This document shows, piece by piece, positions 2,273 through 48,500 of a stretch of 64,000 nt of DNA. The notes beneath the pieces were generated by a model, which was given only the letters and a program-made list of their open reading frames with translations, made no database searches and was not told where the DNA came from. Positions within the stretch are counted from its first letter, which is position 1; the number at the start of each line of letters is the position of its first letter. The position numbers were made by a program, and so were the translations under genes. The stretch comes from Ignavibacteria bacterium (GTDB lineage: Bacteria > Bacteroidota > Ignavibacteria > Tepidaquicellales > OLB5), in assembly GCA_019912545.1 (NCBI GenBank), contig JAIOIK010000147.1:7747-71746 (forward strand), read 5' to 3'.

Positions 2273-4045
2273 TTGAATAAAATATTTCTTATCTTGTTGC
2301 TCCTCATTTTTAATATTGTAGTGTTTGCCGGTGGTCATCAGGGCCTCAGGGACAAAACACAAGAAAACGGACAGTCAACAATCCTCAACAGGAATGTTAA
2401 CCCAGTTGCTTTTACCCGGGCTGCTGCAATTGATACTTCTTTGAAAGTACCCGGCATGACAACATGGTGGGACTACCAGACAAACGGACAAAACCAGAGA
2501 ATGCTTGTGGTCTTGGGTGATACCGTTATTGTGGCTGTTCAATTTTCAGATTCAACCAATGCACAGATCTCTGCGGGCAGAACTGCACTTTACCAGGTTA
2601 GTTTTGACGGCGGTTTAACATGGCTTACAGATCCTGTTGTTGTTGCACCGCAGCCGCTTGGCGGAGCTTATCCGGATATTTGGCCAGTTGTGCTAAACGG
2701 AACCAGAACTATCACAATTTCCGGAAGGCAGTTTTCATCGGGAAGCAAAGGGTATGCGGGTGTTGATGTTCAGCTCACTGCAGGTTCGGTAACTACTAAT
2801 ATTGTTCCGCAGCCGGGATCTGATTTCTTTTCATGTCTGTTAAGCGGTACAAAAATTGGCGGTGTTTACCAGTCTGGTGATACATTATTTTTCAGAAAGT
2901 ATGATTACTCTACAAACACTTATGATAGCAGGCTGATGCTGGCATTACCAACTGCTGAAATCGATGCAAACGGAAGAAAAGCAATTGCTTCTTCAACCGA
3001 TGGACAGAATGTTTTTGCTATGTGGTATGTTTCAACTGCAGGCGTAGAAAAGCTTGCCGGCAAACTTTCAACTGATGGCGGCAATACTTTTGGCGCAATG
3101 ACAACAGTTATGCCTACAACTTTTGTTGCAAATGGCGATGAAACATCTCCATGGTTCGGTATGGATTTAACTTACAAACCAAATTCAAGCACAGTTGTAG
3201 CAGCATGGTGCACGCAGCCGGTATCAAGCGTTAAAGGATATAAGATCCTTTCATGGTCGCCCGGTGTAAATGGCGGAAATCCTGTTGTTGTTGCTGATCA
3301 CACAAACATGCCTGTACTTGGCGATACTGCCTGGGTATTCAATTCAACTGCCGTAATACAGGTAGGTATGACTTACATTTCACATCCAACACTTGCATAT
3401 TCAGAAGATGGATCGACACTTGCATGTGTATTCTCTTCAGTACAAAAGGATAGTATTGTTTATCCAGCACCTATAACATTACTTTACAATGATGTATATA
3501 TCAGTTATTCTTCAAATGACGGCTCAACGTGGTCGACACCAAAGATGATCTCGAGTTGTACTGTTGATGGTGATGAAATATACCCCGTTCTATCAAAGAC
3601 AGGAAATACAACAGGTAACTTTGGATTGCTCTATTATCTATCAGCATATCCGGGGTCATCAAGCTTTTCACAGACAACTGCACCAGTTTCAAGGACCTAT
3701 CCAATTTACACTAGGGTTAATCCTGTAACAGGAAACACTATTCCTATTGGTATCAATACAATTTCAATTGAAATACCTGAGAGGTTCTCACTGGCTCAGA
3801 ATTATCCCAATCCGTTCAATCCTTCAACTACGATCAGATTCCAGCTTTCGAAAGCTTCAACAGTTAATATCAAGATCTTTGATGTAACAGGCAGAGAGAT
3901 AGAAAGCATCGTTAAGGGAGAAATGGTACAGGCAGGAACCCACGAAGTGAAATTTGATGCATCTAAATTTGCAAGTGGTGTATATTTTTATTCATTAGAA
4001 GCAGATAATTTCAAAGAAACAAAGAAAATGATGCTTGTGAAATAA
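2273..4045 (+). CDS. Secreted BNR/Asp-box repeat protein with T9SS C-terminal sorting domain, paralog 2
   Basis: TTG start and signal peptide. Asp-boxes SFDGGLTW, STDGGNTF, SSNDGSTW. Tail LAQNYPNPFNPSTTIRF...GVYFYSLEADNFKETKKMMLVK. Colinear similarity to the 4254 paralog (GDTVIV, NAQ, GRQF, GVDVQL blocks). Confidence 0.75.
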   Translation: MNKIFLILLLLIFNIVVFAGGHQGLRDKTQENGQSTILNRNVNPVAFTRAAAIDTSLKVPGMTTWWDYQTNGQNQRMLVVLGDTVIVAVQFSDSTNAQISAGRTALYQVSFDGGLTWLTDPVVVAPQPLGGAYPDIWPVVLNGTRTITISGRQFSSGSKGYAGVDVQLTAGSVTTNIVPQPGSDFFSCLLSGTKIGGVYQSGDTLFFRKYDYSTNTYDSRLMLALPTAEIDANGRKAIASSTDGQNVFAMWYVSTAGVEKLAGKLSTDGGNTFGAMTTVMPTTFVANGDETSPWFGMDLTYKPNSSTVVAAWCTQPVSSVKGYKILSWSPGVNGGNPVVVADHTNMPVLGDTAWVFNSTAVIQVGMTYISHPTLAYSEDGSTLACVFSSVQKDSIVYPAPITLLYNDVYISYSSNDGSTWSTPKMISSCTVDGDEIYPVLSKTGNTTGNFGLLYYLSAYPGSSSFSQTTAPVSRTYPIYTRVNPVTGNTIPIGINTISIEIPERFSLAQNYPNPFNPSTTIRFQLSKASTVNIKIFDVTGREIESIVKGEMVQAGTHEVKFDASKFASGVYFYSLEADNFKETKKMMLVK

Positions 4046-4253: not shown

Positions 4254-6026
4254 ATGAAAAGATTGATTCTGTTTGTCGTTGGGGTTTCATTTATCGCAGC
4301 AATGTTCTATAATGTCGATGGACCAAAAAAGTTCAGCAATGCAAAGGAAACAGGAAGTAATGTAATTGATTCAAAAACTTCATCAACATATAGGCCTTCC
4401 GGTGTAGTTGATACTACCGGCAGGGTTTTCGGAATGAATGGTTACTATGACTATGTTACTAATGGAAATAACCTTCACAGGATTTGGGTTAGCGGTGATA
4501 CAGTTATCGTGACATCTGATCAGACTGACTCGGTTAACGCACAACTTTCAACTGCCAGGAAATCATACTATCAATATACTTTTGATAATGGTGTAACCTG
4601 GGGAACAGGCGACGCAGTTTTGGTTAACCCCGATGGAAATGCTTATCCTGATCTACACCCAATGATAGTTAATGGCTCAAGAACTCCTGTTTTAACAGGA
4701 AGACAGTTTGTATCCGGTGCAAGAAGAGGTTATACCGGAGTTGATGTTCAGCTTGGTGCCGGTTCTTTTACAAACACTTTAGTGCCAACAGGTGCAGGAA
4801 GTGATAATTTTGGCTGGCCTGTAAGTGCAACTGAGGTTGCTTGTGCATGGCTTGGCGGCGGTACTGCCGATACTATTTATTTTGCAAAATTTGATGTTAC
4901 TACTAATACTTATGGTGCAGTTACAGTATTATTTACTGGAGTGCCTGCGAACGCAAGGTCTTACACTGCTTCAAATGGAAACGGAAAAATTGCAGTGGGA
5001 TATTGGTTTGCAACGGCACCTACTAAGTTAATTTATAGAGAGTCTACAAACGGTGGTACATCATTTGGTGCTGAAGTAACCGCATTTACCGAAGGGACTG
5101 TTGTTAACGGAACTGCGGTTGCTCCCTGGTTTAACGATGATATGATCTATAGCCCAAGCGGTAATCTTTGCTGGGCTTTCGGAACATTAGAGACAGGCAA
5201 TTTTGGTACTATTCGTGGTTCCAAGCTGATGTTCTATAATCCTGCAGTTAATGGCGGAACTGCTGTTACAATTGCAGATTATCTGAACTACCCTCCGATG
5301 GCAGATACAAATGTATTTGGAAATGCTATTAGAAATACTCAGGTAGGGTTTACTTTTATGTCACATCCAAGCTTGGCTTATTCGTCTGATGGCTCTAGAC
5401 TTTTTGTGGTCTATCATGGAGTTCAGCTTGATACTGTTAACAGTTCAAGTTATAGTGGTGATGGTTCTTACAACTATAACGATATATATGTACAGTATTC
5501 AGATGACAACGGCGCAACATGGAGCGCTCCGCGTAACTTGACAAATACTGCAGATCTTGATGAGATATATCCATCAGTTTCACTTGTCGGCTGCACAACT
5601 TCTGCAATTTCGATCACTTATCAGCTTTCCGAGTGCCCGGGTTGCACAAGCTTTACAAATACAACAACACCAACTTGCCCTGTTTGGCAGATTTACAGGA
5701 AATATAATCCTGAGACAGGTGTAATAATTGGCATAAGTAATGTGTCAAATGAGGTACCAAGCGGATTTTCGTTAAATCAGAATTACCCGAATCCGTTTAA
5801 CCCCAATACAAAGATCAGGTTTTCAGTTCCAAAGGCAAGTAATGTAACACTTCTTGTCTATGATATAACCGGAAAACTTGTAGCTACATTGGCAAATAAT
5901 CAAGCAGTAACTGCCGGAACAAAAGAAGTAGAATTCTCAGCTTCAAATCTTGCAAGCGGAATTTACTTCTATACTTTAAAAGCCGGTGAATTTACTGAAA
6001 CTAAAAAAATGATACTTGTAAAATAA
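4254..6026 (+). CDS. Secreted BNR/Asp-box repeat protein with T9SS C-terminal sorting domain, paralog 3
   Basis: Signal/TM N-terminus. Asp-boxes TFDNGVTW, STNGGTSF, SDDNGATW. Tail LNQNYPNPFNPNTKIRF...GIYFYTLKAGEFTETKKMILVK. Same length (590 aa) as paralog 2. Confidence 0.75.
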   Translation: MKRLILFVVGVSFIAAMFYNVDGPKKFSNAKETGSNVIDSKTSSTYRPSGVVDTTGRVFGMNGYYDYVTNGNNLHRIWVSGDTVIVTSDQTDSVNAQLSTARKSYYQYTFDNGVTWGTGDAVLVNPDGNAYPDLHPMIVNGSRTPVLTGRQFVSGARRGYTGVDVQLGAGSFTNTLVPTGAGSDNFGWPVSATEVACAWLGGGTADTIYFAKFDVTTNTYGAVTVLFTGVPANARSYTASNGNGKIAVGYWFATAPTKLIYRESTNGGTSFGAEVTAFTEGTVVNGTAVAPWFNDDMIYSPSGNLCWAFGTLETGNFGTIRGSKLMFYNPAVNGGTAVTIADYLNYPPMADTNVFGNAIRNTQVGFTFMSHPSLAYSSDGSRLFVVYHGVQLDTVNSSSYSGDGSYNYNDIYVQYSDDNGATWSAPRNLTNTADLDEIYPSVSLVGCTTSAISITYQLSECPGCTSFTNTTTPTCPVWQIYRKYNPETGVIIGISNVSNEVPSGFSLNQNYPNPFNPNTKIRFSVPKASNVTLLVYDITGKLVATLANNQAVTAGTKEVEFSASNLASGIYFYTLKAGEFTETKKMILVK

Positions 6027-6042: not shown

Positions 6043-6077
6043 AGCCCTGGTTAATCTGATTAGCCGGGGCTTTCTTT
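6043..6077 (+). terminator. Probable Rho-independent terminator after BNR paralog 3
   Basis: Stem AGCCCTGG (6043-6050) / CCGGGGCT (6064-6071) with one U-G wobble and a 13-nt loop, then TTCTTT. Confidence 0.45.
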
Positions 6078-6102
6078 GAATAATAAATCGGAGGTAATAT
6101 AA

Positions 6103-9072
6103 ATGAGGCTATTTAACCATTTCTTTTTAGCCCTTCTTCTAATTCTTGCGCTTAAAGTTACGGATTCGTTAAGTTCCGGCCTTGAATTCTATGGCACTAC
6201 CGGAAAAATAACCGGTATAGTCAAAGATGACAAGGGCGAGCTGCTTATCGGAGCCAGGGTTGAAATTGAGGGTACTCAATTCCGCTCAGGAACGGATGAA
6301 AGCGGTCAATATGCAATTTTGAACGTACCCGTTGGCACATATTCAGTTAAATGTTCGTATGTCGGATTTGAATCCCAGATCCAGCAGGATGTAAAAGTAA
6401 GTGCCGATGTGACTTCAGAAATTAATTTTACAATGACACAAGGTGGCGTTGTACTTGATACTACAGTTATTATAGCAAAACGCAAAACCGTGGATAATGG
6501 TAGCGGAAAGATCATCAATTCACAGACAATTGATGAGGGTGGAATCAGGGGAATTGAAAATATTGTTGCAAAAACGAGTGGAATTGTTCAGGATGAAAAA
6601 GGCCAGAATATTAATATCCGCGGCGGCAGAGACGGCGAAACACAAATAATTATTGATGGTATTGTAACAAACAATCCGCTTGATAGAACTTCCACTGCAA
6701 ATGTTTCTAATGGTGCATTGCAGGAGCTTGCTGTCTTAACCGGCGGTTTCAGCGCAGAATATGGAAACGTTCTCAGTGGCGTAATAAACGTTACAACTAA
6801 ATCAGCAACTACAAAATTTTCAGGCGCAGTTGATATGGTATCAGATTTTATTGCTGGTAAAAGATCGCAGGGATACAATATATACAGTGTTAGCTTAGGC
6901 GGACCTGTTATACCTACAAAGAAACTGGCTAAATACTGGAGTGTATTCGGTAATTTTGAAAGACAATATTTCCTGGTTGATCAGCCTGTAAGCACAGATG
7001 TTGCTAAGCTATGGTCTGAGGACGGCATTTTGCCAAATTTCTCAAGAGACGGGTATTCATGGACAGGTAAGACAATTATAAGCATCGATGAAATGACAAA
7101 GGGTAAGATAAAGATAAACCTGACTGCAGGATACAGTGGAAACATCGAAAGATCAAGGCAGTGGGTAGGTTCTTTTGGTCTCTTCAATTCATATATGAAT
7201 CCCAAGATTAGAGATGAGAACCAGCAGGGTTTCTTTAAGATAAACCAATTGTTCGGTTCAAAGACTTTCTATGACCTTCAGGCTTCGTACTTAAGGTCAA
7301 CTTCAACCGGCTCTCCGGGCTTGTTCAGCATGGATGAAAGCTATAAAGGTCTCACTAATGGCTGGACATATCCATGGTATCTGGCAATTGGTGATACAAA
7401 CGTCATCCCGGGTCTTAGCGGTAACGGGAGTTCAATTTCAAATAATGTAAATTATGGTGTATTCAGAAATCCATATGACCTTGCCGGAATATCCGCGTTT
7501 TCCGGTAATATATTCGGAAAAAGGAAAACAGATCAGCTTGCTTTTAATCTGAATTTCACTCACCAGGTGTTAACTAAGAAATTTGGAAACCATGAATTAA
7601 AATTTGGCGGAGAATACAAGCAGTATAAGATCAGGATGTATGATGTAAATCCGCTTTCTTATTCAACAATTAATTACAACAAATATAGTGATTCATCCGG
7701 TTTTGTTGTAAGTACTCCGGTTATATCGGATGATGATGGTAATGCAGCATTCCTGAATGCGTTCGGGTATGACCCGTTTGGTGTCGAGTCCGATGTTGAT
7801 TATTTAGACGCTCAGGGCAATAATGTCACTGAAGGTCCATTGAAACCAAGAGTAGGAGCATTTTATTTTCTTGATAAAATGGAGTTCAGTTATTTTAATA
7901 CAAATATAGGCGTAAGGGTTGACTATCTTGATCCTAATACTACGGTACCTATAGATTACCGGAATTTAAAGGGTTCTGATGGCCAATTTACTTTTGCCGA
8001 TTATAAAAAAGTAGAGAAGACAATAATTGTAAGCCCGAGACTAGGGTTCTCGTTCCCGATAACTGATAAAACTGTTTTCCATGCACAATACGGTAAATTT
8101 GTTCAGCTGCCAGCATTGGAGAATCTTTACACAAATCAAAGGGTACTGCGTGATCTTGCTGATGGCGGTGTAGGATACTTTACGATATTTAATAACCCGC
8201 TGCTTAAGCCTGAAAAGACAACGGCTTATGAATTGGGTGTTAAGCACACTGCGGGGGAATACCTGACATTAGGATTAACTGCATATTACAAAGAGACATC
8301 AGACCTTATCCAGGCAAGGAATATAAAGGCATATGACCTTTCTTACGGCTTCGCAATTTATGATAACGGTGATTTCGGTATTATAAGAGGATTAGATTTC
8401 AGTCTTGACCTCAGAAGGATAAACAGGTTAAGAGCTTCTGTTTCTTATGGACTCGCTTTTGCATCAGGAACAGGTTCGGATATCAACACATTAAGCAATG
8501 TTGCTTATAACGGTGATGAACCGCCGAAACTTCCGAATGCACTTGATTACGATCAGAGGCACACGGGTGCTGTTGAGCTTGATTACAGGTGGGGAACCGA
8601 AGATGTGCCCAAAGGATTCTGGGGCGGGGTACTTTCAAGGCTTGGTATTAATGTATTGTTCAGTTTCAATTCAGGAAGGCCCTATACTCCACAAAACAAT
8701 GCAACAGATCCTTTGGCAGTGGTTTCAGGATTGCAGGGAAACCAGCCAATTGCACCGATCAATTCAGCATATTACCCATGGAATTATAAACTTGATCTGA
8801 AAATAGACAAATCAGTGAAGATATTTGATAAGCTGAATGCTAATATTTATTTATTAGTATTGAATGCTCTGGATCAGGAATTGATAAATGCTGTTTTTGA
8901 AGGTTCAGGTGAACCTGGTTATACGGGATGGCTTGATAGTTTTCCCGGAAAGCAATGGGCTCAGCAGAATGGACCCGAAGCTGTAAGGCTTTATAATATC
9001 AGATCACATGCGATTAACAACTATGGCCCGCCAAGACAAGTAAGGCTCGGACTTAGATTATTTTTTAATTAA
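6103..9072 (+). CDS. TonB-dependent-receptor-type outer-membrane barrel with N-terminal carboxypeptidase-regulatory-like domain and plug
   Basis: Signal peptide. GKITGIVKDDKGELLIGARVEIEGT...GQYAILNVPVGTYSVKCSYVGFES matches the CarboxypepD_reg-like fold signature. Plug-like block INIRGGRDGETQIIIDGI...GGFSAEYGNVLSGVINVTTK. 989 aa with a C-terminal aromatic-rich barrel end (LGLRLFFN). Confidence 0.8.
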   Translation: MRLFNHFFLALLLILALKVTDSLSSGLEFYGTTGKITGIVKDDKGELLIGARVEIEGTQFRSGTDESGQYAILNVPVGTYSVKCSYVGFESQIQQDVKVSADVTSEINFTMTQGGVVLDTTVIIAKRKTVDNGSGKIINSQTIDEGGIRGIENIVAKTSGIVQDEKGQNINIRGGRDGETQIIIDGIVTNNPLDRTSTANVSNGALQELAVLTGGFSAEYGNVLSGVINVTTKSATTKFSGAVDMVSDFIAGKRSQGYNIYSVSLGGPVIPTKKLAKYWSVFGNFERQYFLVDQPVSTDVAKLWSEDGILPNFSRDGYSWTGKTIISIDEMTKGKIKINLTAGYSGNIERSRQWVGSFGLFNSYMNPKIRDENQQGFFKINQLFGSKTFYDLQASYLRSTSTGSPGLFSMDESYKGLTNGWTYPWYLAIGDTNVIPGLSGNGSSISNNVNYGVFRNPYDLAGISAFSGNIFGKRKTDQLAFNLNFTHQVLTKKFGNHELKFGGEYKQYKIRMYDVNPLSYSTINYNKYSDSSGFVVSTPVISDDDGNAAFLNAFGYDPFGVESDVDYLDAQGNNVTEGPLKPRVGAFYFLDKMEFSYFNTNIGVRVDYLDPNTTVPIDYRNLKGSDGQFTFADYKKVEKTIIVSPRLGFSFPITDKTVFHAQYGKFVQLPALENLYTNQRVLRDLADGGVGYFTIFNNPLLKPEKTTAYELGVKHTAGEYLTLGLTAYYKETSDLIQARNIKAYDLSYGFAIYDNGDFGIIRGLDFSLDLRRINRLRASVSYGLAFASGTGSDINTLSNVAYNGDEPPKLPNALDYDQRHTGAVELDYRWGTEDVPKGFWGGVLSRLGINVLFSFNSGRPYTPQNNATDPLAVVSGLQGNQPIAPINSAYYPWNYKLDLKIDKSVKIFDKLNANIYLLVLNALDQELINAVFEGSGEPGYTGWLDSFPGKQWAQQNGPEAVRLYNIRSHAINNYGPPRQVRLGLRLFFN

Positions 9073-9092
9073 ACTCGGGAAATAATTAGACT

Positions 9093-12000
9093 ATGAATAA
9101 ATACGTTAAACATAATAAAATACTTCTTCTGGTACTGGCATTTTTGCTCATTGGAAGTAATTCTTTTGCAGATAAGCCTAAGAACCTTCCTGTGGTAACT
9201 GTGGAAGCCGGTATACAGCAGTTATTTATGCAGGGGAACAATATTAATACTACATTCAGATCTGACGGGATATTTAATTATGACTTTATTACCTTCCCGA
9301 CATCTGATGCAGGTATGATTTGGCCGGTAAGCTCACCATCAAGGAAGACTATCAATTATACTTCCGGGATTTGGGTAGGAGCTAAAATTAACGGGGCGAT
9401 AAAGACGGCTGTAGCTGCATACGCTTCGCATTTTACACCGGGTAATATTCCTGTATTAGGACAAGTCACTCCGCAATCGGTATGTAATGATCCACGTTTC
9501 AGGATCTATTACGTACAATTAACGGACCCTACTTTGACAAGTGGAGGTACCAAGACTAAATTGGCAGGTGGAAGAAACTATACATTTACTTATGATGACT
9601 GGGCAACCTGGCCTACAGATCTTGGCGCTCCGTACGTCGAAGTAAACGGCATTCCCGGTTACCAGCCTTCATTTGATGGTGACAGGCCCGGTATTGGTAA
9701 TAGTGAAGCAAGGCCTGATGAAATTTCATTTATGATTTATCAGGATTTTACAAATTGCACAAACAACATTCACCAGGCACAGATCTCTTTGCCGGGCGGA
9801 ACACTCCCAATGGGAGTTGAAGTTCAACAGTTGGCTTTCCAGTTCAACTCACCCGGTTTAACAGATATGTACTTTGTTAAATGGCATGTTATTAACAGAA
9901 GCAATGATCGCTGGGATAGTACTTACATTTCTGTGTTTGATGATGCAGATGTAGGAAACGGTTCATGCGGTGCTGGTGATGATGCTGTTGGATGCGATAC
10001 TAATAAAAATGTAGCTTTTGTATATAATGCAGATAACAACGATTGTAATTACGGTTCACCACCGCCTGCTATAGGTTACAGGTATTTACAGAGTCCGATA
10101 TTGCAAACAAACAATCCTTCAGATTCTGCTTTCCTTCCATATGATACTTTAATTGGATATGTTAAGTTAGGATTAACAGGATTTAATTACTTCGTAAATG
10201 GTGCACCGGACCCCTGTAACAATGACCCGGATGATTTCAGTGCAGGTTATAATTTAATGAGGGGTATGGATGGATGCGGAAATCCAAGAATTAACCCGAC
10301 TCCTGGCGGAGGACCTACTCTGTTCATGTATCCTGGTAATGCTTGTACCAGGACGGGATGGTTTGATAGTGCTTCACATGACGGAAGATTCCTGCAGAAT
10401 AGCGGTCCATTTACGATGAATTCAAATGATACTCAAACAGTAGTTATTGGATGTTTTGTTGGTATCGGAAGTGATAATTTCCAGAGTGTATGCGTATTAT
10501 TGAATAATGCTGATAGAGTTCAGAGAATATATGACCTTAATTTCCGTTCAATTCCTCTGCCTCCGCCTCCACAGGTGAGCGCAGTAGCAGACGGGAATGG
10601 TGCAGTGACTTTGTATTGGTCAAATCTCTCTGAATCATACAATGAATTTGATAAGATCGATTTAACAGGATTCTGGAAATTCCAGGGTTATGAAATTTAT
10701 CAAATAAAACCAGGTACTGGCGGCGATAATCCGGAAGACAGAAGATTACTGGCTATTTATGATGTAATAGACAGCATTACAACTGTTATGGATTCAGTTG
10801 AGACACTTCAGCCGAATGGTTCAAATGTGTGGGAATTTAAGCCTACTGCATTGGGAACAAATTCAGGTATTTCAAGACACATTGGACTGACTCAAAACGC
10901 TTTTCCTCCCGGTGTCAACAACTTTTTCATCAATGGAACAACATATAAATTTGCTGTTGTTGCGTACGGTGTAAATTTGCGTGGACTACCGCCATACAAG
11001 GTTCTCAAAAATCCTATCGGTTCCCAGGTTATTGAAGTTGTTCCTAATTATCCGACATTAGGCAGTAACTTCATCAACAAATTTGGAGATACCCTGGTAA
11101 CAAACAGGGTTGATAGGGGATTTGTTCCAATTGTACTGGATCCAAAGAAAGTAATATCCGCAAGATATCAGCAGGTCTTTAGTTCAGATTCTACTTTCGG
11201 TCTTGTAAGGATCATTAATAATGCACAGGTAGATACATTGGTGAGAAATGCCACCAATAAATCAATTCTTAATAATGATGCATTTGTCTATGATGGTATA
11301 TTGTTCAAAGCCGATTCAATCACTACACTTAACATGGGTGTTATCAGAGACCCAGGTCCGGGTGCTCAGACTTCAGGCAGGGGCTGGACTTACAGTAATA
11401 GTAATATAAACTTTGCTGGTGTTGATACACTTTCATTTGTAAATTATCCAACCGGTAATTACAAGCCGATGCAAAGCGTATCGATGGGATTGACATGGCC
11501 AACTATTCGTAATTTCAAGAATAATTTCAAGAGCAAAATTGATTATACTTTTATTAAAACATATTCTTTAAAGAAGGTTAAGATTACCTTTGGACAGACT
11601 CAGAAAGCATACAGGTACATGGGTGCAGTTAATAATTCCCCGTACCGTGATTATGTTGATGTCCCGTTCACTGTGGAAATCGACGATCCTCTGGACACAA
11701 ACTCCGCACCAAGACAGGTTAATGTGGCATTCTATGATGGTGATTCTAGTACTACCTGGAATCCCAAAGCACAGCCTGATGGTGGCTTGGAGATGATTTA
11801 CATAATGTATTCAAACTATTCTGCGACACCAAGTACAGCCTACACAACCAGGAACATAAACTTTGCTACTCAGTTTGGTGCAATGGATGTACTGTATGTT
11901 TGGTGGCCAAGGTTATTGAACGGAAGCAGCCCGGCATACCAGAATGGTGATGTAATGACCATTACCCCGTATACCCAGCTCAAATATCAGCAGAGTCCGG

Positions 12001-12392
12001 GTATGATTACAGTTACAGAAGTTTCAACTGTAGCTCCAACTTTAGGAAGTGTTACCATAGCCCAGGAAAGAGGCGAATTAGAAAAAGTAAGGGTTGTGCC
12101 AAATCCGTATTATGGCGGTCATGCACAGGAAACAAGCTCGTTTGATAGGTTTGTTAAGTTCATGAATATGCCAAAACAGGCTACTATTTATCTTTATTCA
12201 TTAAATGGTAATCTTATCAGAATGATCAATAAGAATGATAATAATACATCGATCAATTGGGATCTTCTGAATACAGATAATATACCGATTGCAAGTGGAA
12301 TTTATATTGCGTTCATTGATGCACCCGGTATTGGTACGAAAACTATTAAGCTGGCAATATTTACTCCGGAGGAAAGACTCGATGCGTTCTAA
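9093..12392 (+). CDS. Large secreted/surface protein of unknown function with FN3-like segment and divergent T9SS/FlgD-Ig-like C-terminal tail
   Basis: Signal peptide (KILLLVLAFLLIGSNSFA). FN3-like stretch PPPPQVSAVADGNGAVTLYWSN...FQGYEIYQ. The last ~100 aa, VVPNPYYG...ATIYLYSLNGNLI...ASGIYIAFI...TKTIKLAIF, parallel the canonical tails of the neighbouring cargo proteins. It starts 20 nt after the upstream barrel gene. Confidence 0.7.
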   Translation: MNKYVKHNKILLLVLAFLLIGSNSFADKPKNLPVVTVEAGIQQLFMQGNNINTTFRSDGIFNYDFITFPTSDAGMIWPVSSPSRKTINYTSGIWVGAKINGAIKTAVAAYASHFTPGNIPVLGQVTPQSVCNDPRFRIYYVQLTDPTLTSGGTKTKLAGGRNYTFTYDDWATWPTDLGAPYVEVNGIPGYQPSFDGDRPGIGNSEARPDEISFMIYQDFTNCTNNIHQAQISLPGGTLPMGVEVQQLAFQFNSPGLTDMYFVKWHVINRSNDRWDSTYISVFDDADVGNGSCGAGDDAVGCDTNKNVAFVYNADNNDCNYGSPPPAIGYRYLQSPILQTNNPSDSAFLPYDTLIGYVKLGLTGFNYFVNGAPDPCNNDPDDFSAGYNLMRGMDGCGNPRINPTPGGGPTLFMYPGNACTRTGWFDSASHDGRFLQNSGPFTMNSNDTQTVVIGCFVGIGSDNFQSVCVLLNNADRVQRIYDLNFRSIPLPPPPQVSAVADGNGAVTLYWSNLSESYNEFDKIDLTGFWKFQGYEIYQIKPGTGGDNPEDRRLLAIYDVIDSITTVMDSVETLQPNGSNVWEFKPTALGTNSGISRHIGLTQNAFPPGVNNFFINGTTYKFAVVAYGVNLRGLPPYKVLKNPIGSQVIEVVPNYPTLGSNFINKFGDTLVTNRVDRGFVPIVLDPKKVISARYQQVFSSDSTFGLVRIINNAQVDTLVRNATNKSILNNDAFVYDGILFKADSITTLNMGVIRDPGPGAQTSGRGWTYSNSNINFAGVDTLSFVNYPTGNYKPMQSVSMGLTWPTIRNFKNNFKSKIDYTFIKTYSLKKVKITFGQTQKAYRYMGAVNNSPYRDYVDVPFTVEIDDPLDTNSAPRQVNVAFYDGDSSTTWNPKAQPDGGLEMIYIMYSNYSATPSTAYTTRNINFATQFGAMDVLYVWWPRLLNGSSPAYQNGDVMTITPYTQLKYQQSPGMITVTEVSTVAPTLGSVTIAQERGELEKVRVVPNPYYGGHAQETSSFDRFVKFMNMPKQATIYLYSLNGNLIRMINKNDNNTSINWDLLNTDNIPIASGIYIAFIDAPGIGTKTIKLAIFTPEERLDAF

Positions 12393-12423
12393 ACACTTTT
12401 TTGAAAAACTAAAGGAGCACAAA

Positions 12424-13485
12424 ATGAAATCATATTATAAAATAATTCAAACTGCTAAAATTGCAATAATTGCTTTGTTGCTATGCGGCAGTATAGGCTT
12501 CGCAGGTGACCGTAGCAAATACGGCACATCTGCCGCTCCGGAATTACTGATACCTGTTGGCTCTAAAGGTACTTCATTAAGCGGTTCTATGATATCATCA
12601 ATTACCGGAGTAGATGCAATGTACTGGAATCCTGCCGGGTTATCAATGATGACTAATCAGACAGAAGTACTTGCTTCACACATGAAATATATCGCTGATA
12701 TTGATGTAAACTATGTAGCAGGTGCTGTTAATCTTGGCGGCATGGGAGTTATTGGTGCAAGCTTAAAAACACTTAGCTTCGGCGATGAGCTTGTTACCAC
12801 TCTTGAAAGCCCTGATGGAACCGGTGAAACCTGGTCTCCAACTTATCTGACAACTTCTGTATCATATGCAAGAAAAATGTCAGATAAAATACTCTTTGGA
12901 ACAACTGTCAAGATCATTTATGAACAAATTTCTACTGTTTCTGCAACAGGTTTTGCATTCGATTTTGGTTTGCAATATCTTGCAGGCAAGTCCGGACTTA
13001 AATTCGGAGTTGCATTGAAGAATTTTGGACCATCTATGAGGTTTGATGGTATTGCTCTTGAGCAAAATTACATTCCTGCAGGTAATGTTGGTACTGCAAC
13101 TGAGCCAAGAAGGATAACTTTGCAGGATTTCTCTTTGCCAACTACCCTGGAAATCGGTTTATCATACGATCTCCCGATTGGGAAAAAGAATAACGTTCAG
13201 TTATCAACTACTTTCCAGAATAACAACTTCTCAAGTGATGAGTATAGGGTTGGACTGGAATACAACTATAACAACTATGTATTCCTTAGGGGTGCATATG
13301 CTTTTACACCGGATTATAAAGCTGAAGACGGCCTGATCAAAAAAGATCAGAATCTCTTCGGACCTTCTTTTGGTGTAGGGCTGCAGTATCCATTCGGGAA
13401 TATGAGGTTAGGACTGGATTATGCTTACAGAGTAACCCAGAGGTTTAATGCTAACCAGTGGTTTTCGTTAACTGTGGGCTTCTAA
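12424..13485 (+). CDS. PorV/PorQ-like (FadL-superfamily) outer-membrane beta-barrel protein
   Basis: I place the start at the ATG at 12424, preceded by AAGGAG. The ORF-track start at 12289 overlaps the upstream gene. Signal peptide, then GTSAAPELLIPVGSKGTSLSG...AMYWNPAGLS resembles the N-terminal signature of PorV-family barrels. Ends in WFSLTVGF (terminal Phe). Confidence 0.65.
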   Translation: MKSYYKIIQTAKIAIIALLLCGSIGFAGDRSKYGTSAAPELLIPVGSKGTSLSGSMISSITGVDAMYWNPAGLSMMTNQTEVLASHMKYIADIDVNYVAGAVNLGGMGVIGASLKTLSFGDELVTTLESPDGTGETWSPTYLTTSVSYARKMSDKILFGTTVKIIYEQISTVSATGFAFDFGLQYLAGKSGLKFGVALKNFGPSMRFDGIALEQNYIPAGNVGTATEPRRITLQDFSLPTTLEIGLSYDLPIGKKNNVQLSTTFQNNNFSSDEYRVGLEYNYNNYVFLRGAYAFTPDYKAEDGLIKKDQNLFGPSFGVGLQYPFGNMRLGLDYAYRVTQRFNANQWFSLTVGF

Positions 13486-13513
13486 AATGCAGATCTGATT
13501 GAAACTTTTTTCG

Positions 13514-13551
13514 AAAATGCCATTTACTACTGTAAATGGCATTTTCTTTTT
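13514..13551 (+). terminator. Strong Rho-independent terminator closing the 6103-13485 operon
   Basis: Perfect 14-bp stem AAAATGCCATTTAC / GTAAATGGCATTTT with loop TACT, followed by CTTTTT. Confidence 0.75.
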
Positions 13552-13577: not shown

Positions 13578-14939
13578 ATGAGAATCATACGTGTAATAAT
13601 TGTCCTCATTATGTTTCAATCATTGGCCTTTTCAGGCGATGATTTCAATTTTGATTTTGATTATTCAATTTTCAAAGATGAATCAAGTAAAAATTTTGTT
13701 GAGTTCTATTATTCTTTTAATCCGGACAACTTAATATTTATCAAAACAGCAAACGGGTATGAAGCCAGCGGCAAGATCTCAATGACTGTTATTAACAAAA
13801 GCACACAGAAAACTGTAGTTGCCAAAGACTTTAAAGTGCCCATCAGTCTTATTGATACTTCAGGAAGCTTCAAGCATTTTAAGCTGACCGGACAGATTAA
13901 TGTTCTACTTGATACAGGAACTTATGCTGTAAAGGTCAGAGCATCGGATTTTACAGATTCTGTAAAATACGCTGATTTTAATGAAGATATAGTTCTTAAA
14001 GATTTTTCAAAAACACAATTGAGTTTAAGTACTATTCAGTTAAGTACAGGTATTGTCAAATCAGATGACATTAGTAACATCTTTTATAAGAATACACTGG
14101 AGGTCACTCCAAATCCATCAGCTTTATTTGGTTATAATCTCAATAAACTTTACTACTATCTTGAGATATATAATATTAACACTGCAGATCTTGGAAGCAA
14201 GTATTCAGTTGCTGTAACTATTGCAAATCAGGATGGAACTGAAATCAAGTCAGCTAATAGGGAGTACACCGTACAGGCTGATTCAAAGGTAGAATTTGGT
14301 TCAGTTGACATTACCGGATTGCCTTCAAATCGTTACCTGCTGCTTGTTAAACTTTTTGATGAGGAAAACGAAGAAAGACTCAGAGCATTCAAATATTTCT
14401 ATATTTATAACAGTGATTCGAATACGGCAACGGTTAACCTGACAGAACTTGAAAACGAATACCTGCTTAGCGAATACCCTAAGATGAATGAGAAAGATGT
14501 TGAAAAAGAATTTAACAGGGCAATTTATATCATGACTGATGTTCAGAAAGGGCAGTATGAACAGCATAAAACACTTGATGAAAAAAGAATGTTTATGTTC
14601 AAATACTGGAAACTTATCAGCCCGATTCTGACCAAGAAAGAGTATTTCTCCAGGATTGAATACGCGAATAAGAACTTCAGAAGTGATTTTCGTGATGGGT
14701 GGAAGTCAGATAGGGGGAGAGTCTATTCAATTTTCGGCAAATACGATGAAATTGAGAGATTTCCATATGAAGGATCAACGAGGGCTTATGAGATTTGGAC
14801 CTACAATAAGCTTCAGGGAGGTGCTATTTTTGTGTTTATTGATATGAGCGCAGGTTACGGCGATTACCAATTGGTACACTCAACTGCCCAAAATGAGATA
14901 CGTGATGAAGAATGGCAGGAAAAGTTGAAACTGCGTTAA
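13578..14939 (+). CDS. GWxTD domain-containing secreted protein
   Basis: Signal peptide. The C-terminal block FRDGWKSDRGRVYSIFGKYDEIERFPYEGSTRAYEIWTY matches the GWxTD signature (GW-x-[ST]-D-RG...yG.Pd.i...YE.W.Y). Confidence 0.7.
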   Translation: MRIIRVIIVLIMFQSLAFSGDDFNFDFDYSIFKDESSKNFVEFYYSFNPDNLIFIKTANGYEASGKISMTVINKSTQKTVVAKDFKVPISLIDTSGSFKHFKLTGQINVLLDTGTYAVKVRASDFTDSVKYADFNEDIVLKDFSKTQLSLSTIQLSTGIVKSDDISNIFYKNTLEVTPNPSALFGYNLNKLYYYLEIYNINTADLGSKYSVAVTIANQDGTEIKSANREYTVQADSKVEFGSVDITGLPSNRYLLLVKLFDEENEERLRAFKYFYIYNSDSNTATVNLTELENEYLLSEYPKMNEKDVEKEFNRAIYIMTDVQKGQYEQHKTLDEKRMFMFKYWKLISPILTKKEYFSRIEYANKNFRSDFRDGWKSDRGRVYSIFGKYDEIERFPYEGSTRAYEIWTYNKLQGGAIFVFIDMSAGYGDYQLVHSTAQNEIRDEEWQEKLKLR

Positions 14940-15057: not shown

Positions 15058-15984
15058 TTGTTTAGATACAGGTACCATATTGTAATTGCTTCGTTTATCC
15101 TATCGGTAATTCTTTGGTTGTCTTTAAATTTAAACCAGACATACGAGATAGAAAAAACCATTCCGATAAAAATTAATATAAACAAACCATTTGCCGTATC
15201 AGGCAATATACCACTGAATCTTGAGGCCAAGTTCAGAGGGAGCGGCTGGAATCTGCTTCGGCTCTTTACGTCGCTCAATTTGCAGTTCAATTACGATCTA
15301 AATACCAGAAAAAAAGATAAATTCATTATTTTAACAAAGGAATATCTTGAAAATAGCCTCGGTCTAAGTGATAATATGGCAATAGTTTCCACATATCCTG
15401 AGACACTATTCGTGAATATTGAAAGTTATGAAGAAAAGTATGTGAAACTAATGCCTAAGATCCTGATCGAGTGTATGGAAGGCTACCAGGTTGTTGGAAA
15501 ACCTATCCTTATACCGGATAGCTTAAAAATAGGTGGTGCAATTGACCTGCTCAGGAATATTAATCATTTGAATTCGAGATCATTTTTCTTTGACGGAGTA
15601 AATGCAGAGATTATCAGAAATATTCCGGTTTCGGATAGTCTATCGAATTTGCTTTGGATGTCACAAAATGAGGTTAAATTGATAGTGAATGTTGAATTGA
15701 CAGCAGAAAAGGAATTCACAGATGTTAATATAAGTGTATCAAATATTCCTTCTGATAAAGACGTCTTGTTGATTCCGCAAACGATTGCAGTGCATTTGAA
15801 GGGTGGAGTAAACCAGCTTTCAAAAGTTGATAATACCAAAATAATTGCAAAAATTGATTTTGAAAAAATATTATCGGATACTACAGGTTCCATTACTCCG
15901 AAGTTTGAGGTTCCGGAAGGCTGCACTGTTATAGCGGCAAAGCCGGAATCAATTCAGTATGTTATAAAGAAGAAAACACAATAA
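15058..15984 (+). CDS. YbbR/CdaR-like domain protein (tentative)
   Basis: Single N-terminal TM (IVIASFILSVILWLSL), then repeated roughly 80-aa beta-rich segments with the pattern ...V.V.G...L.....I...ID.., as in YbbR repeats. TTG start. Assignment is by pattern only. Confidence 0.45.
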   Translation: MFRYRYHIVIASFILSVILWLSLNLNQTYEIEKTIPIKININKPFAVSGNIPLNLEAKFRGSGWNLLRLFTSLNLQFNYDLNTRKKDKFIILTKEYLENSLGLSDNMAIVSTYPETLFVNIESYEEKYVKLMPKILIECMEGYQVVGKPILIPDSLKIGGAIDLLRNINHLNSRSFFFDGVNAEIIRNIPVSDSLSNLLWMSQNEVKLIVNVELTAEKEFTDVNISVSNIPSDKDVLLIPQTIAVHLKGGVNQLSKVDNTKIIAKIDFEKILSDTTGSITPKFEVPEGCTVIAAKPESIQYVIKKKTQ

Positions 15985-15992
15985 CAGATATT

Positions 15993-16769
15993 TTGTCATT
16001 GATAGCAGAAATAAAATTAGAATTACGATCTTTAATTGCAGCGATTAAGACTCTAAGTTTTAAAGAGAGTTTTATTTTCATTTCTGTTGCCATAATAACA
16101 TTTGTTTCGATGTATTATGCTTCTCCGAATTTTTTCAGGAAGATATTTGATACAAGTGATGATAAATTCTATTCATCATTATATTGGTTTTCTGCAGATG
16201 GTGTCTTGATGCTTATTATTCCCTTAATACTTATACCGCTGGTGTTAAAAGGAAAACCTTCTGAATACGGATTCAGGATAGGTGATTATAAGTTCGGACT
16301 GAAATCGAGTTTATTGTTCGTAGCGTTGATGCTGCCTTTCTTATGGATTGCATCGGGATCGAAGAGTTTTGCCAGTACATATCCACAGGGAGGGCCTTTT
16401 GTAAGAGAGAATATAAGTGTTCTTTTATATTATGAGCTTTTTGTGGGATTCTATATGCTTGCATGGGAGTTCTTCTGGCGCGGTTATATGATGTTCGGCC
16501 TGAAACAAAAGTTTGGATTTTATGCAATCTTTATACAGATGATACCGTTCTTTATTTTACACAGGGGAAAGCCGGAAATTGAAACATTTGCATCTATTTT
16601 TGCCGGGCTTATACTCGGTATTCAGGCATGGAGGGCAAACTCGTTTATATACTGTTTTCTTGTGCACTGGTCTGTTATGATCTTTATTGATGTGATATCT
16701 GTTCTAAGATACAGGTCGCAATCATACGGAATTGGTTTTGATGCATTCATGAAACTTTTTACAAATTAA
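15993..16769 (+). CDS. CPBP family intramembrane glutamic endopeptidase (CAAX protease-like)
   Basis: Polytopic membrane protein carrying the WEFFWRGY (EExxxR-type) and FLVHW (H-motif) signatures of the CPBP family. Confidence 0.65.
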   Translation: MSLIAEIKLELRSLIAAIKTLSFKESFIFISVAIITFVSMYYASPNFFRKIFDTSDDKFYSSLYWFSADGVLMLIIPLILIPLVLKGKPSEYGFRIGDYKFGLKSSLLFVALMLPFLWIASGSKSFASTYPQGGPFVRENISVLLYYELFVGFYMLAWEFFWRGYMMFGLKQKFGFYAIFIQMIPFFILHRGKPEIETFASIFAGLILGIQAWRANSFIYCFLVHWSVMIFIDVISVLRYRSQSYGIGFDAFMKLFTN

Positions 16770-45548: not shown

Positions 45549-48500
45549 TTGAAGCAAAACCCCAAAATTGCGGCAGTATTACTGTTTATACTCGCAGGGA
45601 TAGCCTATTCCCAGCCTAAAACATTTAACCCTGGTGATGTAAATTATAAGAAAATAGTAATTTCAGTTGCAGGCGCTGATTCAGTAATCGTGCTTCCGGA
45701 TAAATTCCTGAAATTCGGGACTCTCACATTATATTCCGATTCAACTGAAGTTGACCCTGCAAATTATTCAATAGATTACCGCTATGGCAAAGTCCGGTTA
45801 AAAGATTCATTCGTCAAAGATATAGTCACAAGCGGCAAGCCCGAAAGGCTGCAGCTTATCATTACATATAAAAACTTTCCCTTTGATATTCCCGATTCAT
45901 ATTCCAAATTTGAAATACTGAACAAGCTGGATACTCTTGGAGGCGATACGGTAAAAGTCGCTGAGATTAAATCTGATTTTGTTGAGGATATCTTTGCGGG
46001 TACTGATCTGCAGAAATCGGGAAGTATTTTCCGGGGACTCACAATTGGCAATAACCGCGATCTTACCCTTCAATCGGGATTCCGCCTGCAATTGAACGGA
46101 AAACTCTCAAGCGATATTGAAATTACCGCAGCGTTAACGGATGAGAATACCCCGATACAGCCTGAGGGGAATACACAAAAGCTGCAGGAACTTGATAAAG
46201 TTTTTGTAGAACTGCGCTCAACTAATATTACTGCAACTCTTGGTGATATTGATGTGAATTTTACGGGAAGTGATTATTTCAATTTCAGCAAGAAACTTCA
46301 GGGAGCAAAAGGATTTGCCAATTTCGGGAAGACCGATCTCTTTCTGACGGGGGCGATATCAAGAGGAAGGTTTAATAGCAATAGTTTTAACGGAATTGAC
46401 GGTGTGCAGGGTCCATACAGGCTTGTAGGCGCTGATAACGAAGTTAATATTGTGGTAATTGCGGGAAGCGAAAAAGTTTATCTTGATGGTATTGTGATGA
46501 CAAGGGGAGAGTCAAACGATTATACAATTGATTACTCAAACGGGCAGATAAAATTCTCGAATCGCCGGCTCATTACAAATTCCTCCAGAATAGTAGTTGA
46601 TTTTGAGTATTCCGATAAAAAATATTCAAGAAGCTTTATTGCCGGGCAGACCAAAACGGCTGTATTTAATGAAAGGCTGAAATTATCTTTTTCTTATTTA
46701 AGAGAGCGTGACGACCCGAATAAGCCAATTGATTTCCTGCTTTCAGATACCGATAGAACCATAATATCTCAGGCTGGAGATGATAAATTCAAAGCATCCC
46801 GAAGCGGCGTAGTATTTGTTGGCGCAGATACTTCAGGGAAATCTTTGGGAAGTTATATCCAGCGTGATACTCTGATAAATTCTCAAAGTTTCATAAAATA
46901 TTTATATGCTCCCGGAAACGACAGCGCCTTATACCAGGTCACTTTTTCATTTGTTGGTGCAGGCAAGGGTGATTACAACAGCCTGAGCACAAGCGCATAT
47001 ACATTTGCAGGGATCGCTCAGGGCAGTTACCTGCCGATAGTTTTTTTCCCGCTGCCTGTTGCGTATCAATCAGCAGATATTGGCATGGAGCTGAAGCTTT
47101 CGAAATCCGTTTCGCTGCTTGTAGAGGGCTCGGGCAGTGATTTTGACCGCAACCTGCTATCTGACAAGGATGATTCAGAAAACAAAGGGGGCGCCTTCAG
47201 CGCTTCGTTTTTGTTCAGCCCCAAACAGCTTAAACTTGGCAATTTGAATCTTGGTGATATTGAATTCTTCTTCAGGCAAAAGGTGGTTAACAAGCTATAC
47301 AATGCCGTAGATAGACTTAACCGGATCGAGTACGACCGCATTTGGGATATACAGGACAGCCTGAGGCTGACTGAATCAATAAGCGAGCTTGGCTTAAGGT
47401 TCAACCCGGGGAAATATTTAAGCATTAATACTAACGGCGGAAGGATAAGCCGTGGTGATAAGTTCAATTCAACCCGTGGTTCGGTTGATCTTAAATTTAA
47501 AGGGGATAGCCTTGAGCTGCCTTCTGCAAATTATTATGTAGATTATATTTCAAGCAATGATAAGAACATCGATTATGGAGGAAAATGGATCAGGCAATTC
47601 GGGAATTTAAATTATAAGTTATCACCCTTTACAAATAAGAAGCTAGGAAAGTATAACCTTGTATTTGAATTTGGCGGGGAAGATAAACAGATCCGCTCAC
47701 TGAATTTTGACACTGCAGGTATTGGCAGCTTCCGGTTCTATGAGTTCCGCCCGATGCTTTTGATAAGCGACCTGTTTAAGTTTGATCTTTCTTACCGGTT
47801 CAATTACAGGTACGATGATGTGTATAATCAGGGGAGGCTCGAAAGGCAGTCCAATTCATACACAAGCATAGTTGGATTGAACTTGAAAGACCTCAGCTTT
47901 CTATCTGCCTCGGGGGATGTTACTGTTTACGACAGGAAATATACACCCGTGTTTCAGCAGCAGGGATTTTCGGATTCAAGAACTATCCTCGTTACATCAC
48001 AGAGCAATATCTGGTTTCTTGAGCGAGGTTTGAATGCAAACCTGTTCTATAAAATATCAAGTGAAAGGACTGCTAAGCAGGAAGTCGTTTTCATTGCCGT
48101 TCCCATTGGACAGGGAAATTACAAATACCTGGGCGATCTTAACGGAAACGGGCTGCAGGATGAAAATGAATTTGTGCTTACAAATTATGACGGGGATTAC
48201 ATAAAAATAATACGACCGACTGACCAGTTATTCCCCACAACTGATCTCCAAAGCTCGGTGAACGTGAATATTGTCCCTTCACGCTTTATCACAACTAGCG
48301 GCAATAATGTGATGAATACAATTTTGAGGAATCTTACATTTGATTCTTACCTAAGTGTTGCAGAAAAGAGCAAAGACCCGGTACAGAGGAATATTTATTT
48401 CCTTAAGTTCAGTACATTTCAGAATGATGTTAATACCATTACTGGAGCAGCGACAGTTCAGCAGGATATTGGTATATTTGAAAATAACGATCTCTTTGGC

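Follow-up and report, generated by a model that had tools for sequence, protein, structure and literature searches.

What do three adjoining genes build together when they encode, in this order, a TonB-dependent transporter, a large secreted protein and a small outer-membrane barrel of the PorV/PorQ family? This question is raised by a stretch of 64,000 nucleotides from an Ignavibacteria bacterium (GenBank assembly GCA_019912545.1, contig JAIOIK010000147.1, positions 7,747 to 71,746), hereafter the window, in which the three genes lie on one strand and are designated here g1, g2 and g3. The reading we favour, and to which we give an even chance, is that they form one transcription unit building a single outer-membrane assembly, in which g2 would be exported by a type IX secretion system (T9SS), moored on g3 and displayed as the surface partner of g1.

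Organisation and conservation of the operon

The gaps between the genes are short, 20 nt between g1 and g2 and 31 nt between g2 and g3; these values, given in a preliminary description made from the sequence alone, were unchanged when the coordinates were recomputed. The start of g3 was placed at the ATG at 12424, preceded by AAAGGAG at 12412-12418, and its 353-aa product carries a signal peptide. A mechanically called open reading frame (ORF) beginning at TTG 12289 overlaps g2, and this upstream codon is not the likely start.

The trio is bracketed by two hairpins. The upstream one (6043-6071) has 13 pairs including 2 G-U pairs, is followed by UUCUUU and has a folding energy of -22.6 kcal/mol (z = -4.6 against shuffled sequences). 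In the downstream one (13513-13546), 15 bp pair without a mismatch around a loop of 4 nt, and UUUUU comes next (-21.4 kcal/mol, z = -11.1). The preliminary description was thus right about the presence of both, its downstream stem of 14 bp from 13514 being in fact one of 15 bp from 13513. A generic terminator scan of the region revealed no overall enrichment (9 sites against 6.6 +/- 2.7 expected), so that the argument for the boundaries rests on these two hairpins, each individually far outside its shuffles, and on their position directly 3' of a stop codon. Among related loci, a local hairpin at or below -11 kcal/mol was present within 110 nt 3' of g3 in 64 of 64, and a hairpin at or below -12 kcal/mol with a T-rich tail in 38 of 64, both counts being made without a shuffle control. 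Since a hairpin after g3 is kept in essentially every locus, with or without a conserved next gene, the trio can be regarded as a conserved transcription unit. Neither Rfam nor ARAGORN gave a match anywhere in the window, so that no riboswitch, other RNA regulator or tRNA hints at a substrate.

Homologues of g2 of about 1100 aa are found in Ignavibacteria with 59-91% identity among those fetched, the nearest being in an Ignavibacteria metagenome-assembled genome (MAG; locus L006, 91%). More distant homologues, at 25-36% identity, occur in other Ignavibacteria, Eisenbacteria, Rhodothermaceae, Rubricoccaceae, Zixibacteria, Marinimicrobia and other MAGs. The order of TonB-type barrel, g2 and PorV-like barrel is kept in Rhodothermaceae, Eisenbacteria, Marinimicrobia and a Bacteroidota MAG, and carriers of the trio are known from Ignavibacteria, Rhodothermales, Eisenbacteria, Zixibacteria, Marinimicrobia, Kryptonia and KSB1. 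When one genome of each GTDB species was scanned with a 19-sequence g2 alignment as query, at least 595 g2-encoding stretches were detected, and the best 79 loci were used for the neighbourhood counts given here and below. Neighbours were called by tblastn with four window proteins, and both flanks could be assessed for 60 g2-family genes. Both g1 and g3 accompany g2 in 48 of these, neither does in 11, g3 alone in 1 and g1 alone in 0. The trio is co-inherited all-or-none, and the conserved neighbourhood that the preliminary description required of its reading is found across several phylum-level lineages of the Fibrobacteres-Chlorobi-Bacteroidetes (FCB) superphylum. The genes are also closely spaced across loci, with median gaps of 34 nt between g1 and g2 (n = 63) and 46 nt between g2 and g3 (n = 66); g3 is the most conserved of the three and g2 the least. 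No cultured carrier was found among the records checked.

The C-terminal tail of g2 and the g3 barrel

The tail of g2 can be aligned with the canonical type A tails of the three cargo genes located upstream of g1, from which it differs by an insertion after PNP and by nine additional terminal residues, TPEERLDAF. Although it had been described at first as degenerate, it is a specialised, conserved and length-fixed variant. Measured from the ASGxY motif, the C-terminus lies 33.2 +/- 0.7 aa away in the 61 g2 genes that have g3 behind them, whereas the distance is 26-28 aa in 13 of the 15 g2-family genes that lack a following g3. Of the window's five ordinary cargo tails, four have a distance of 24 aa (the fifth lacks a clean ASGxY anchor), and the extension is absent from the ordinary cargo. 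The length of the extension goes with the presence or absence of g3 (Fisher p = 3.5e-10, with no correction for phylogeny), apart from two exceptions, L026 and L070, in which the extension is present and no g3 adjoins. In the Marinimicrobia locus L004, the copy with g3 ends in ...FQPEERLDVY and the orphan copy in ...LQPKR, an independent loss of the extension. Residues 1094-1099 have a predicted local distance difference test (pLDDT) value below 50, the last six residues being predicted as disordered in the monomer. The extension is a candidate docking or selection peptide for g3.

Most orphan g2 genes fall in tandem arrays that make up a single Ignavibacteria clade (L031, L033-L037, L039, L049, L050). 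Orphan paralogues (among them L033:2482-12741, L036:2659-9180 and L004:7001-10291) often occur as 2-4 tandem copies, have tails that are 5-6 residues shorter and show no transporter or PorV-like neighbour. Since the tails of these arrays are ordinary ones, the body of g2 works as an autonomous surface module and also exists as ordinary T9SS cargo.

Comparison of profiles indicated which known sorting domains resemble the tail most. A hidden Markov model (HMM) of the g2 tail without its extension gave 24-31 bits with the PorZ tails of Porphyromonas gingivalis, Tannerella forsythia and Winogradskyella, against 9.5-20 bits with the five ordinary cargo tails of the window, and 1 of about 70 other tails in the loci outscored the PorZ tails. 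This single non-g2 tail reaching the level of PorZ is that of a propeller protein in L052. When the search was turned round, the portion of a PorZ HMM that covers the tail matched almost only g2-family proteins. Whichever way the search is run, the g2 tail thus resembles PorZ tails more than it does those of ordinary cargo. Weak matches to the Pfam tail family PF18962 were observed in 4 of 19 g2 relatives, and several relatives carry the NCBI annotation of T9SS type A cargo. From these features we infer that g2 is exported by the T9SS.

The third gene had been described as looking like a PorV-family barrel, and a clear signal of the PorV/PorQ family sustains this. With 172.4 bits against a cut-off of 90, it matches the PorV/PorQ family model NF033709 over the full profile (positions 1-326 of 326), and its only match among PDB sequences is the PorV of Flavobacterium johnsoniae (6h3i_F). 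It stays below the thresholds of the equivalog models for PorV (NF033710, 61/250), PorQ (NF033711, 81/220) and PorV2 (NF052325, 91/325). Four distant orthologues, from Rhodothermaceae, Eisenbacteria, Marinimicrobia and a Bacteroidota MAG, behave in the same way, with 128-157 bits to NF033709 and no equivalog reached; PorQ is the best-scoring equivalog in these four and scores above PorV in all four as well as in g3 itself. Judged by these profiles, g3 represents a distinct PorV/PorQ subfamily. It is not a generic FadL protein, as its match to Toluene_X/FadL (PF03349) reaches 28.8 bits, just under the cut-off of 29.7, and covers residues 48-205 only; its matches to Porin_4 are sub-threshold or borderline. 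We propose g3 as a dedicated holder of the g2 tail. The idea of a dedicated anchor for one cargo with an atypical tail, already put forward in the preliminary description, gains support from the extension length that tracks g3 and from the PorZ-like tail.

Could the linkage of these genes reflect nothing beyond a shared promoter? In that case, g2 would be an ordinary cleaved cargo, released or linked to lipopolysaccharide (LPS), g3 would be one more general shuttle of the PorV type or would let small hydrophobic compounds through as a FadL-like channel, g1 would act independently, and the linkage would amount to co-regulation. The sub-threshold and borderline matches of g3 to Toluene_X/FadL and Porin_4 would suit such an explanation, as would the plain annotation of some g2 relatives as type A cargo and the putative character of the contacts of g2 with g3, and of g1 with either. 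However, the pattern of 48 loci with both partners, 11 with neither and 0 with g1 only extends over phylum-level distances and is hard to explain by co-regulation alone, the extension has a fixed length only where g3 is present, and g3 is a full-length member of the PorV/PorQ family and not a FadL protein. We consider co-transcription without assembly to be quite improbable.

The transporter and the body of g2

The carboxypeptidase-regulatory-like N-domain, plug and barrel previously noted in g1 all score above their Pfam cut-offs (Table 1). The alternating hydrophobic pattern of the TonB-box-like segment is kept in an alignment of 56 g1 orthologues, across which the plug motifs RGGR..E....DG and GGF.AEYG are also conserved. 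By its plug, barrel and TonB-box-like motif, g1 is a genuine TonB-dependent transporter, with predicted energy coupling. Its designation as a SusC-type barrel had to be abandoned, as the SusC/RagA model TIGR04056 gave no match to g1 even at E <= 1. A SusC/RagA transporter with a SusD-like partner was likewise rejected, since g2 has no SusD Pfam match and no lipobox, and its model is all-beta.

The class to which g1 belongs, that of large TonB-type barrels with CarboxypepD_reg and OMP_b-brl_4 domains, also includes Oar of Myxococcus, a protein needed for the secretion of the protease PopC. An outward route can be imagined in which g1, in the manner of Oar, exports g2 and g3 takes the g2 tail at the exit, the self-contained and terminator-bounded trio forming a miniature secretion system of its own. 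However, a folded multidomain protein of 1100 aa cannot pass through a plugged 22-strand barrel, the tail of g2 is a sorting domain of the T9SS type, and orphan g2 paralogues exist without g1 and g3. Moreover, many ordinary T9SS cargo genes lie next door in g2 carriers, so that the standard route is available. We regard this route as very improbable.

Comparison of g1 with PorF was made using the PorF (PG0534) sequence from the supplement of PMC7323717. Both proteins have the same domain order, with 20% identity over the first 240 residues, which comprise the N-domain and plug. A PorF HMM gave 32-73 bits with g1 orthologues, driven by these same two domains, and 116 bits with a separate ORF in the Kryptonia locus L061 (13610-15061). 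Given the low identity and the preference of the HMM for this other ORF, g1 was rejected as an orthologue of PorF (PG0534/Fjoh_0118) and is better seen as a transporter family paralogous to it.

The second gene begins with the signal-like sequence MNKYVKHNKILLLVLAFLLIGSNSFA. No Pfam family was found in g2 or in the bodies of 19 relatives, and searches of the g2 body against Pfam, NCBIfam and PDB sequences were all empty. An AlphaFold2 model computed from 73 homologues has a mean pLDDT of 85.6 and is almost wholly beta. With no lipobox, no Pfam family and an all-beta predicted fold, g2 is not a SusD- or SusE-like lipoprotein, an identity that would have counted against the preliminary description. 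The FN3-like segment that had been noted corresponds to a beta-sandwich in the predicted model, but no HMM supports its assignment. Foldseek with the full-length model gave loose multidomain matches, with PorZ first (E 7e-8, template modelling (TM) score ~0.1); as these were uninformative, the N-terminal domain was modelled separately. The resulting model (aa 38-492, pLDDT 86.2) is similar to the beta-supersandwich found at the N-terminus of GH116, GH94, GH149 and related enzymes, with query-based TM scores (TMq) of 0.34-0.39 and 7-11% identity, the catalytic (alpha/alpha)6 domain being absent, and may be taken as a hint of carbohydrate binding, no more. Most family-invariant residues fall in this domain (D284, D286, G288, D297, D317, R432, G438 and P439), a pattern which suggests a metal- or ligand-binding pocket.

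An orthology of g2 with PorZ or PorU was considered and rejected. The likeness lies in the tail alone, to which the PorZ HMM alignment is confined; the NCBIfam model NF052228 gave no match, the tails of PorU and PorZ in the PDB reach only E ~0.1, and the N-domain of g2 is a beta-supersandwich and not a propeller.

A proposed surface assembly

Cargo of the T9SS is normally cut by the sortase and linked to LPS. PorZ and PorU are T9SS proteins that keep their tails and are bound to PorQ and PorV, respectively. Our model starts from what the sequences show, namely the gene anatomy, the family memberships, the operon-like spacing, the all-or-none co-inheritance and the correlation between extension and g3. 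According to it, g2 would leave the cell via the T9SS and, without being cleaved or linked to LPS, would be picked up and held non-covalently by g3, as PorZ is by PorQ and PorU by PorV. Specificity for g3 would come from the nine-residue extension together with the PorZ-like tail. The moored protein would show its all-beta body, with the conserved acidic pocket, beside g1 and would serve as a capture or lid subunit that passes substrate to the transporter for TonB-energised import. The likeliest substrate would be a glycan or a fragment of a glyco-conjugate, as hinted by the GH116/GH94/GH149-like N-domain and by the sialidase-fold cargo encoded upstream. The sialidase-fold propeller proteins encoded upstream and the GWxTD-domain protein encoded downstream would be frequent accessories, the former often supplying substrate fragments. 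Overall, this would be an uptake machine similar to SusC/SusD in which the lipoprotein lid has been swapped for a T9SS-delivered protein on a PorQ-like barrel.

Published work offers precedents for several of these steps. PorQ is believed to take PorZ straight from the translocon and to retain it (PMC10947112). The type B cargo that PorP-like barrels anchor is encoded next door to them (work cited in PMC10994853). BamG, a barrel of the FadL-like kind, lies packed on BamA and bears surface proteins (PMC12578637).

Several observations weigh against this assembly. The g2 tail reaches only 19.6 bits with the Por_Secre_tail model TIGR04183 (cut-off 23) and has no match to the Pfam tail family. Its likeness to PorZ tails may reflect no more than a FlgD_ig-like subclass of sorting domains common to both. 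PorZ lacks any such addition at its C-terminus, so that the extension is specific to the g2 family and is not a general retention signal. The N-domain agrees with its fold matches in part only (TMq < 0.4), and this gives no firm indication of a ligand. The physical contacts of g2 with g3, and of g1 with g2 or g3, are part of what we infer. The loci were gathered through g2, a procedure that g1-g3 pairs without g2 would escape. The trio is present once per locus in most loci examined (a per-locus and not a genome-wide count), unlike typical multi-copy nutrient loci. The gene serA, coding for D-3-phosphoglycerate dehydrogenase, is located upstream of g1 in 12 diverse loci (L002, L021, L023, L024, L027, L029, L032, L046, L061, L067, L072, L080) and serC in 4, while genes for a lipid A acyltransferase and a GT9 heptosyltransferase follow the trio in 6 loci (L056, L057, L069, L078, L079, L084). 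This housekeeping synteny, together with the single copy per locus, could point to a role in envelope biogenesis.

Such a role leads to a further explanation, in which the trio is an envelope or T9SS-accessory module, the counterpart of PorF, PorZ and PorQ of P. gingivalis, which supplies or presents a glycolipid or glycan for cargo attachment or serves outer-membrane biogenesis. PorF (PG0534) is a TonB-receptor-like barrel tied to the T9SS, whose mutant has a phenotype like those of porQ and porZ (PMC5445135, PMC12704123). A partial-loss phenotype is common to the porF, porQ and porZ mutants, and glycan import for anionic LPS (A-LPS) is a role that has been suggested for PorF (PMC12704123). 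PorF is built like g1, with a signal peptide, a CarboxypepD_reg-like domain, a TonB-box region, a plug and a barrel, and the PorZ-like tail of g2 fits the same picture, as does the rank of PorQ above PorV for g3 and its four orthologues, in which four it is the best equivalog. The housekeeping synteny, with lipid A and heptosyltransferase genes adjoining in some lineages, also agrees with it, and so do a PorU-like peptidase gene beside the trio in L003 and a PorF-like gene near the trio in L061. The parallel of PorF-PorQ-PorZ with g1-g3-g2 is an analogy that would support such an accessory role. Against it, g1 is no orthologue of PorF (32-73 bits compared to 116 for the L061 ORF), the g2 body is unlike the PorZ propellers and escapes the NCBIfam PorZ model, g3 lies below the PorQ equivalog threshold, and the orphan g2 arrays with ordinary tails suggest an effector-like body. 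We hold an accessory role of this kind to be unlikely, and retain the surface uptake assembly as the preferred reading.

Genomic surroundings

Directly upstream of the trio, three tandem cargo paralogues all match the Por_Secre_tail model above its cut-off. Their bodies are of the BNR/Asp-box type, and the family profile matches chains with the GH33/BNR sialidase fold (e.g. 4fj6, E 2.5e-13). A homologue of this cargo is found directly 5' of g1 in 24 of the 45 loci with enough flank, including the Marinimicrobia locus L004, and these tandem sialidase-fold proteins may be functional accessories of the trio. On the other side, a gene for a GWxTD-domain protein, here g4, follows g3 in 32 of 60 assessable loci from several phylum-level lineages, with a median gap of 82 nt. 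A terminator-like hairpin intervenes between g3 and this gene despite their frequent linkage. No meaningful match to g4 was found in the PDB, and a search of the literature on GWxTD proteins returned no papers. Given how frequent these neighbours are, the single cell-surface island seen by the preliminary description can be recognised as a recurrent arrangement with a strict core, g1 to g3, and facultative flanks.

The window itself belongs to the core chromosome, as it contains pdxJ, kup, ligA and a nucleotidyltransferase gene of the PolyA_pol/HD-domain (CCA-adding) type. The housekeeping synteny in distant lineages suggests that the trio is a vertically inherited core module.

Table 1. Features of the operon and of its immediate flanks; nucleotide positions are those of the window.
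Feature	Residues (aa)	Position (nt)	Strand	Description
Tandem T9SS cargo paralogues (three)		429-2240, 2273-4045, 4254-6026	+	~600 aa each; sialidase-fold propeller body and type A sorting domain
5' boundary hairpin		6043-6081	+	terminator-like, closes the upstream cargo genes
g1		6103-9072	+	TonB-dependent transporter, 989 aa, signal peptide
g1 CarboxypepD_reg N-domain	36-112	6208-6438	+	Pfam 65.9 bits, cut-off 32.3
g1 TonB-box-like LDTTVIIAKR	118-127	6454-6483	+	between N-domain and plug
g1 plug (PF07715)	136-225	6508-6777	+	Pfam 30.3 bits, cut-off 23.9
g1 barrel (PF00593, TonB_dep_Rec)	437-914	7411-8844	+	22-strand receptor family; 87.6 bits, cut-off 27
g2		9093-12392	+	secreted all-beta protein, 1099 aa
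g2 signal peptide		9093-9173	+	Sec-type, no lipobox Cys
g2 N-terminal beta-supersandwich domain	38-492	9204-10568	+	predicted; invariant Asp/Arg cluster
g2 Ig/FN3-like sandwich	~493-650	10569-11042	+	predicted beta-sandwich
g2 further beta domains		11043-12083	+	
g2 PorZ-like T9SS sorting domain	998-1090	12084-12362	+	alignment with window tails, reciprocal HMM matches with PorZ tails
g2 C-terminal extension TPEERLDAF		12363-12389	+	9 residues past the normal sorting-domain end
g3		12424-13485	+	PorV/PorQ-family outer-membrane barrel, 353 aa, PorQ-like size
3' boundary hairpin		13513-13551	+	intrinsic-terminator-like, ends the trio transcript
g4		13578-14939	+	GWxTD-domain protein, 453 aa, signal peptide; TIGR04514 65.9 bits, cut-off 28; PF20094 45.8 bits, cut-off 26.9
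g4 motif GWKSD	374-378	14697-14711	+	

Further genes of the surroundings deserve mention. Beyond g4, the window encodes a YbbR-like protein (15058-15984) and then a CPBP/Rce1-family membrane protease (15993-16769), whose match to the archaeomyxosortase MrtA is sub-threshold (92 bits against 200); both genes are syntenic with the block in 20-22 Ignavibacteria loci. Two large ORFs, at 45549-49088 (+, 1179 aa) and 52416-53999 (-, 527 aa), have no Pfam family at E <= 1e-5. Two adjacent T9SS cargo genes, at 54904-56394 (496 aa) and 56434-59460 (1008 aa), carry a canonical Por_Secre_tail on bodies that are otherwise unannotated.

In other genomes, T9SS-tailed propeller proteins with partial matches to F510_1955 glycosylhydrolases are encoded just downstream of the trio in Zixibacteria (L052:11486-14074) and Kryptonia (L061:10468-12714). 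The PorF-like TonB-type barrel of the Kryptonia MAG (L061:13610-15061, 116 bits to the PorF HMM) lies about 3 kb downstream of the trio, and in an Eisenbacteria MAG a PorU/PorU2-like C25 peptidase with a T9SS tail (L003:1-3032) is found just upstream of it. These two genes may represent loose links to T9SS attachment genes.

Relation to known systems

The trio shares features with several characterised systems. One of them is SusC/SusD (RagA/RagB) of Bacteroidota, where a TonB-dependent barrel with a CarboxypepD_reg-like N-domain is also encoded beside a presumed surface partner, and where secreted proteins of glycosidase fold are encoded nearby. The differences are that g1 lacks a SusC/RagA match, that g2 is a 1099-aa all-beta protein with a T9SS tail and no lipobox whereas SusD is an alpha-helical lipoprotein, and that the trio adds an obligatory third gene for a PorV/PorQ-family barrel.

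PorQ-PorZ, like PorV-PorU, pairs a PorV/PorQ-family barrel with a surface protein bearing a sorting domain, which in g2 is of the PorZ type. In contrast to PorQ-PorZ, g3 fails the PorQ and PorV equivalogs, the body of g2 is unrelated to the PorZ propellers, g2 has a nine-residue extension where PorZ has none, and the g2-g3 pair is in an operon with a TonB-dependent transporter. PorF has the domain order of g1, but it is 160 aa shorter and is not known to share a locus with PorQ or PorZ.

The PorP/SprF barrels, as in SprF-SprB, resemble g3 in that the cargo gene is directly followed by the gene for its dedicated anchor barrel. However, g3 reaches only 14 bits with TIGR03519, the sorting domain is of type B in those systems and type A-like in g2, and no transporter is part of PorP/SprF. 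Finally, a structural precedent is given by BamA-BamG-BamH, the core of the beta-barrel assembly machinery (BAM) of Bacteroidota, in which a 14-strand FadL-family barrel stands against a larger barrel and forms a platform for extracellular proteins (PMC12578637). Here again g3 differs, with 25 bits against a BamG cut-off of 250, and in the BAM, which serves to assemble proteins, the partners are lipoproteins where the trio has T9SS cargo.

Searches of the literature on the T9SS, PorV/PorV2 and TonB-dependent transporters in Ignavibacteria yielded no description of a trio of this composition. Its parts are all of known kinds; what appears to be new is the combination, in which a TonB-dependent transporter has two obligatory companions, a surface protein with a tail and a barrel of the PorV/PorQ family. 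Tentatively, and with somewhat less than even confidence, we suggest that the trio is an ancient and previously unrecognised class of outer-membrane machine in the FCB superphylum, in which docking would use a PorZ-type tail and a nine-residue C-terminal peptide.

Biological significance

Together with the T9SS, TonB-dependent transporters with surface partners (SusCD, RagAB, BtuBG) are hallmarks of Bacteroidota-related bacteria. The two have been treated separately, and the operon described here, present in hundreds of species-level genomes of the carrier lineages, links them genetically. It suggests that barrels of the PorV/PorQ type are general mooring posts that give other outer-membrane machines large secreted subunits. 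It also provides a functional context for the g2 family, whose more than 1,500 members have no domain annotation, as well as for a distinct PorV/PorQ subfamily and for the GWxTD proteins. A prediction follows for the selection of partners, namely that a fixed nine-residue C-terminal peptide selects a private barrel. Moreover, the operon offers a comparative handle on PorF, an unexplained component of the T9SS. If the trio is indeed such an unrecognised class of machine, one design would underlie these uptake modules and, within the T9SS attachment complex, its PorQ-PorZ(-PorF) part, and the operon would be the first genetic clue to the role of the TonB-like PorF beside PorQ and PorZ.

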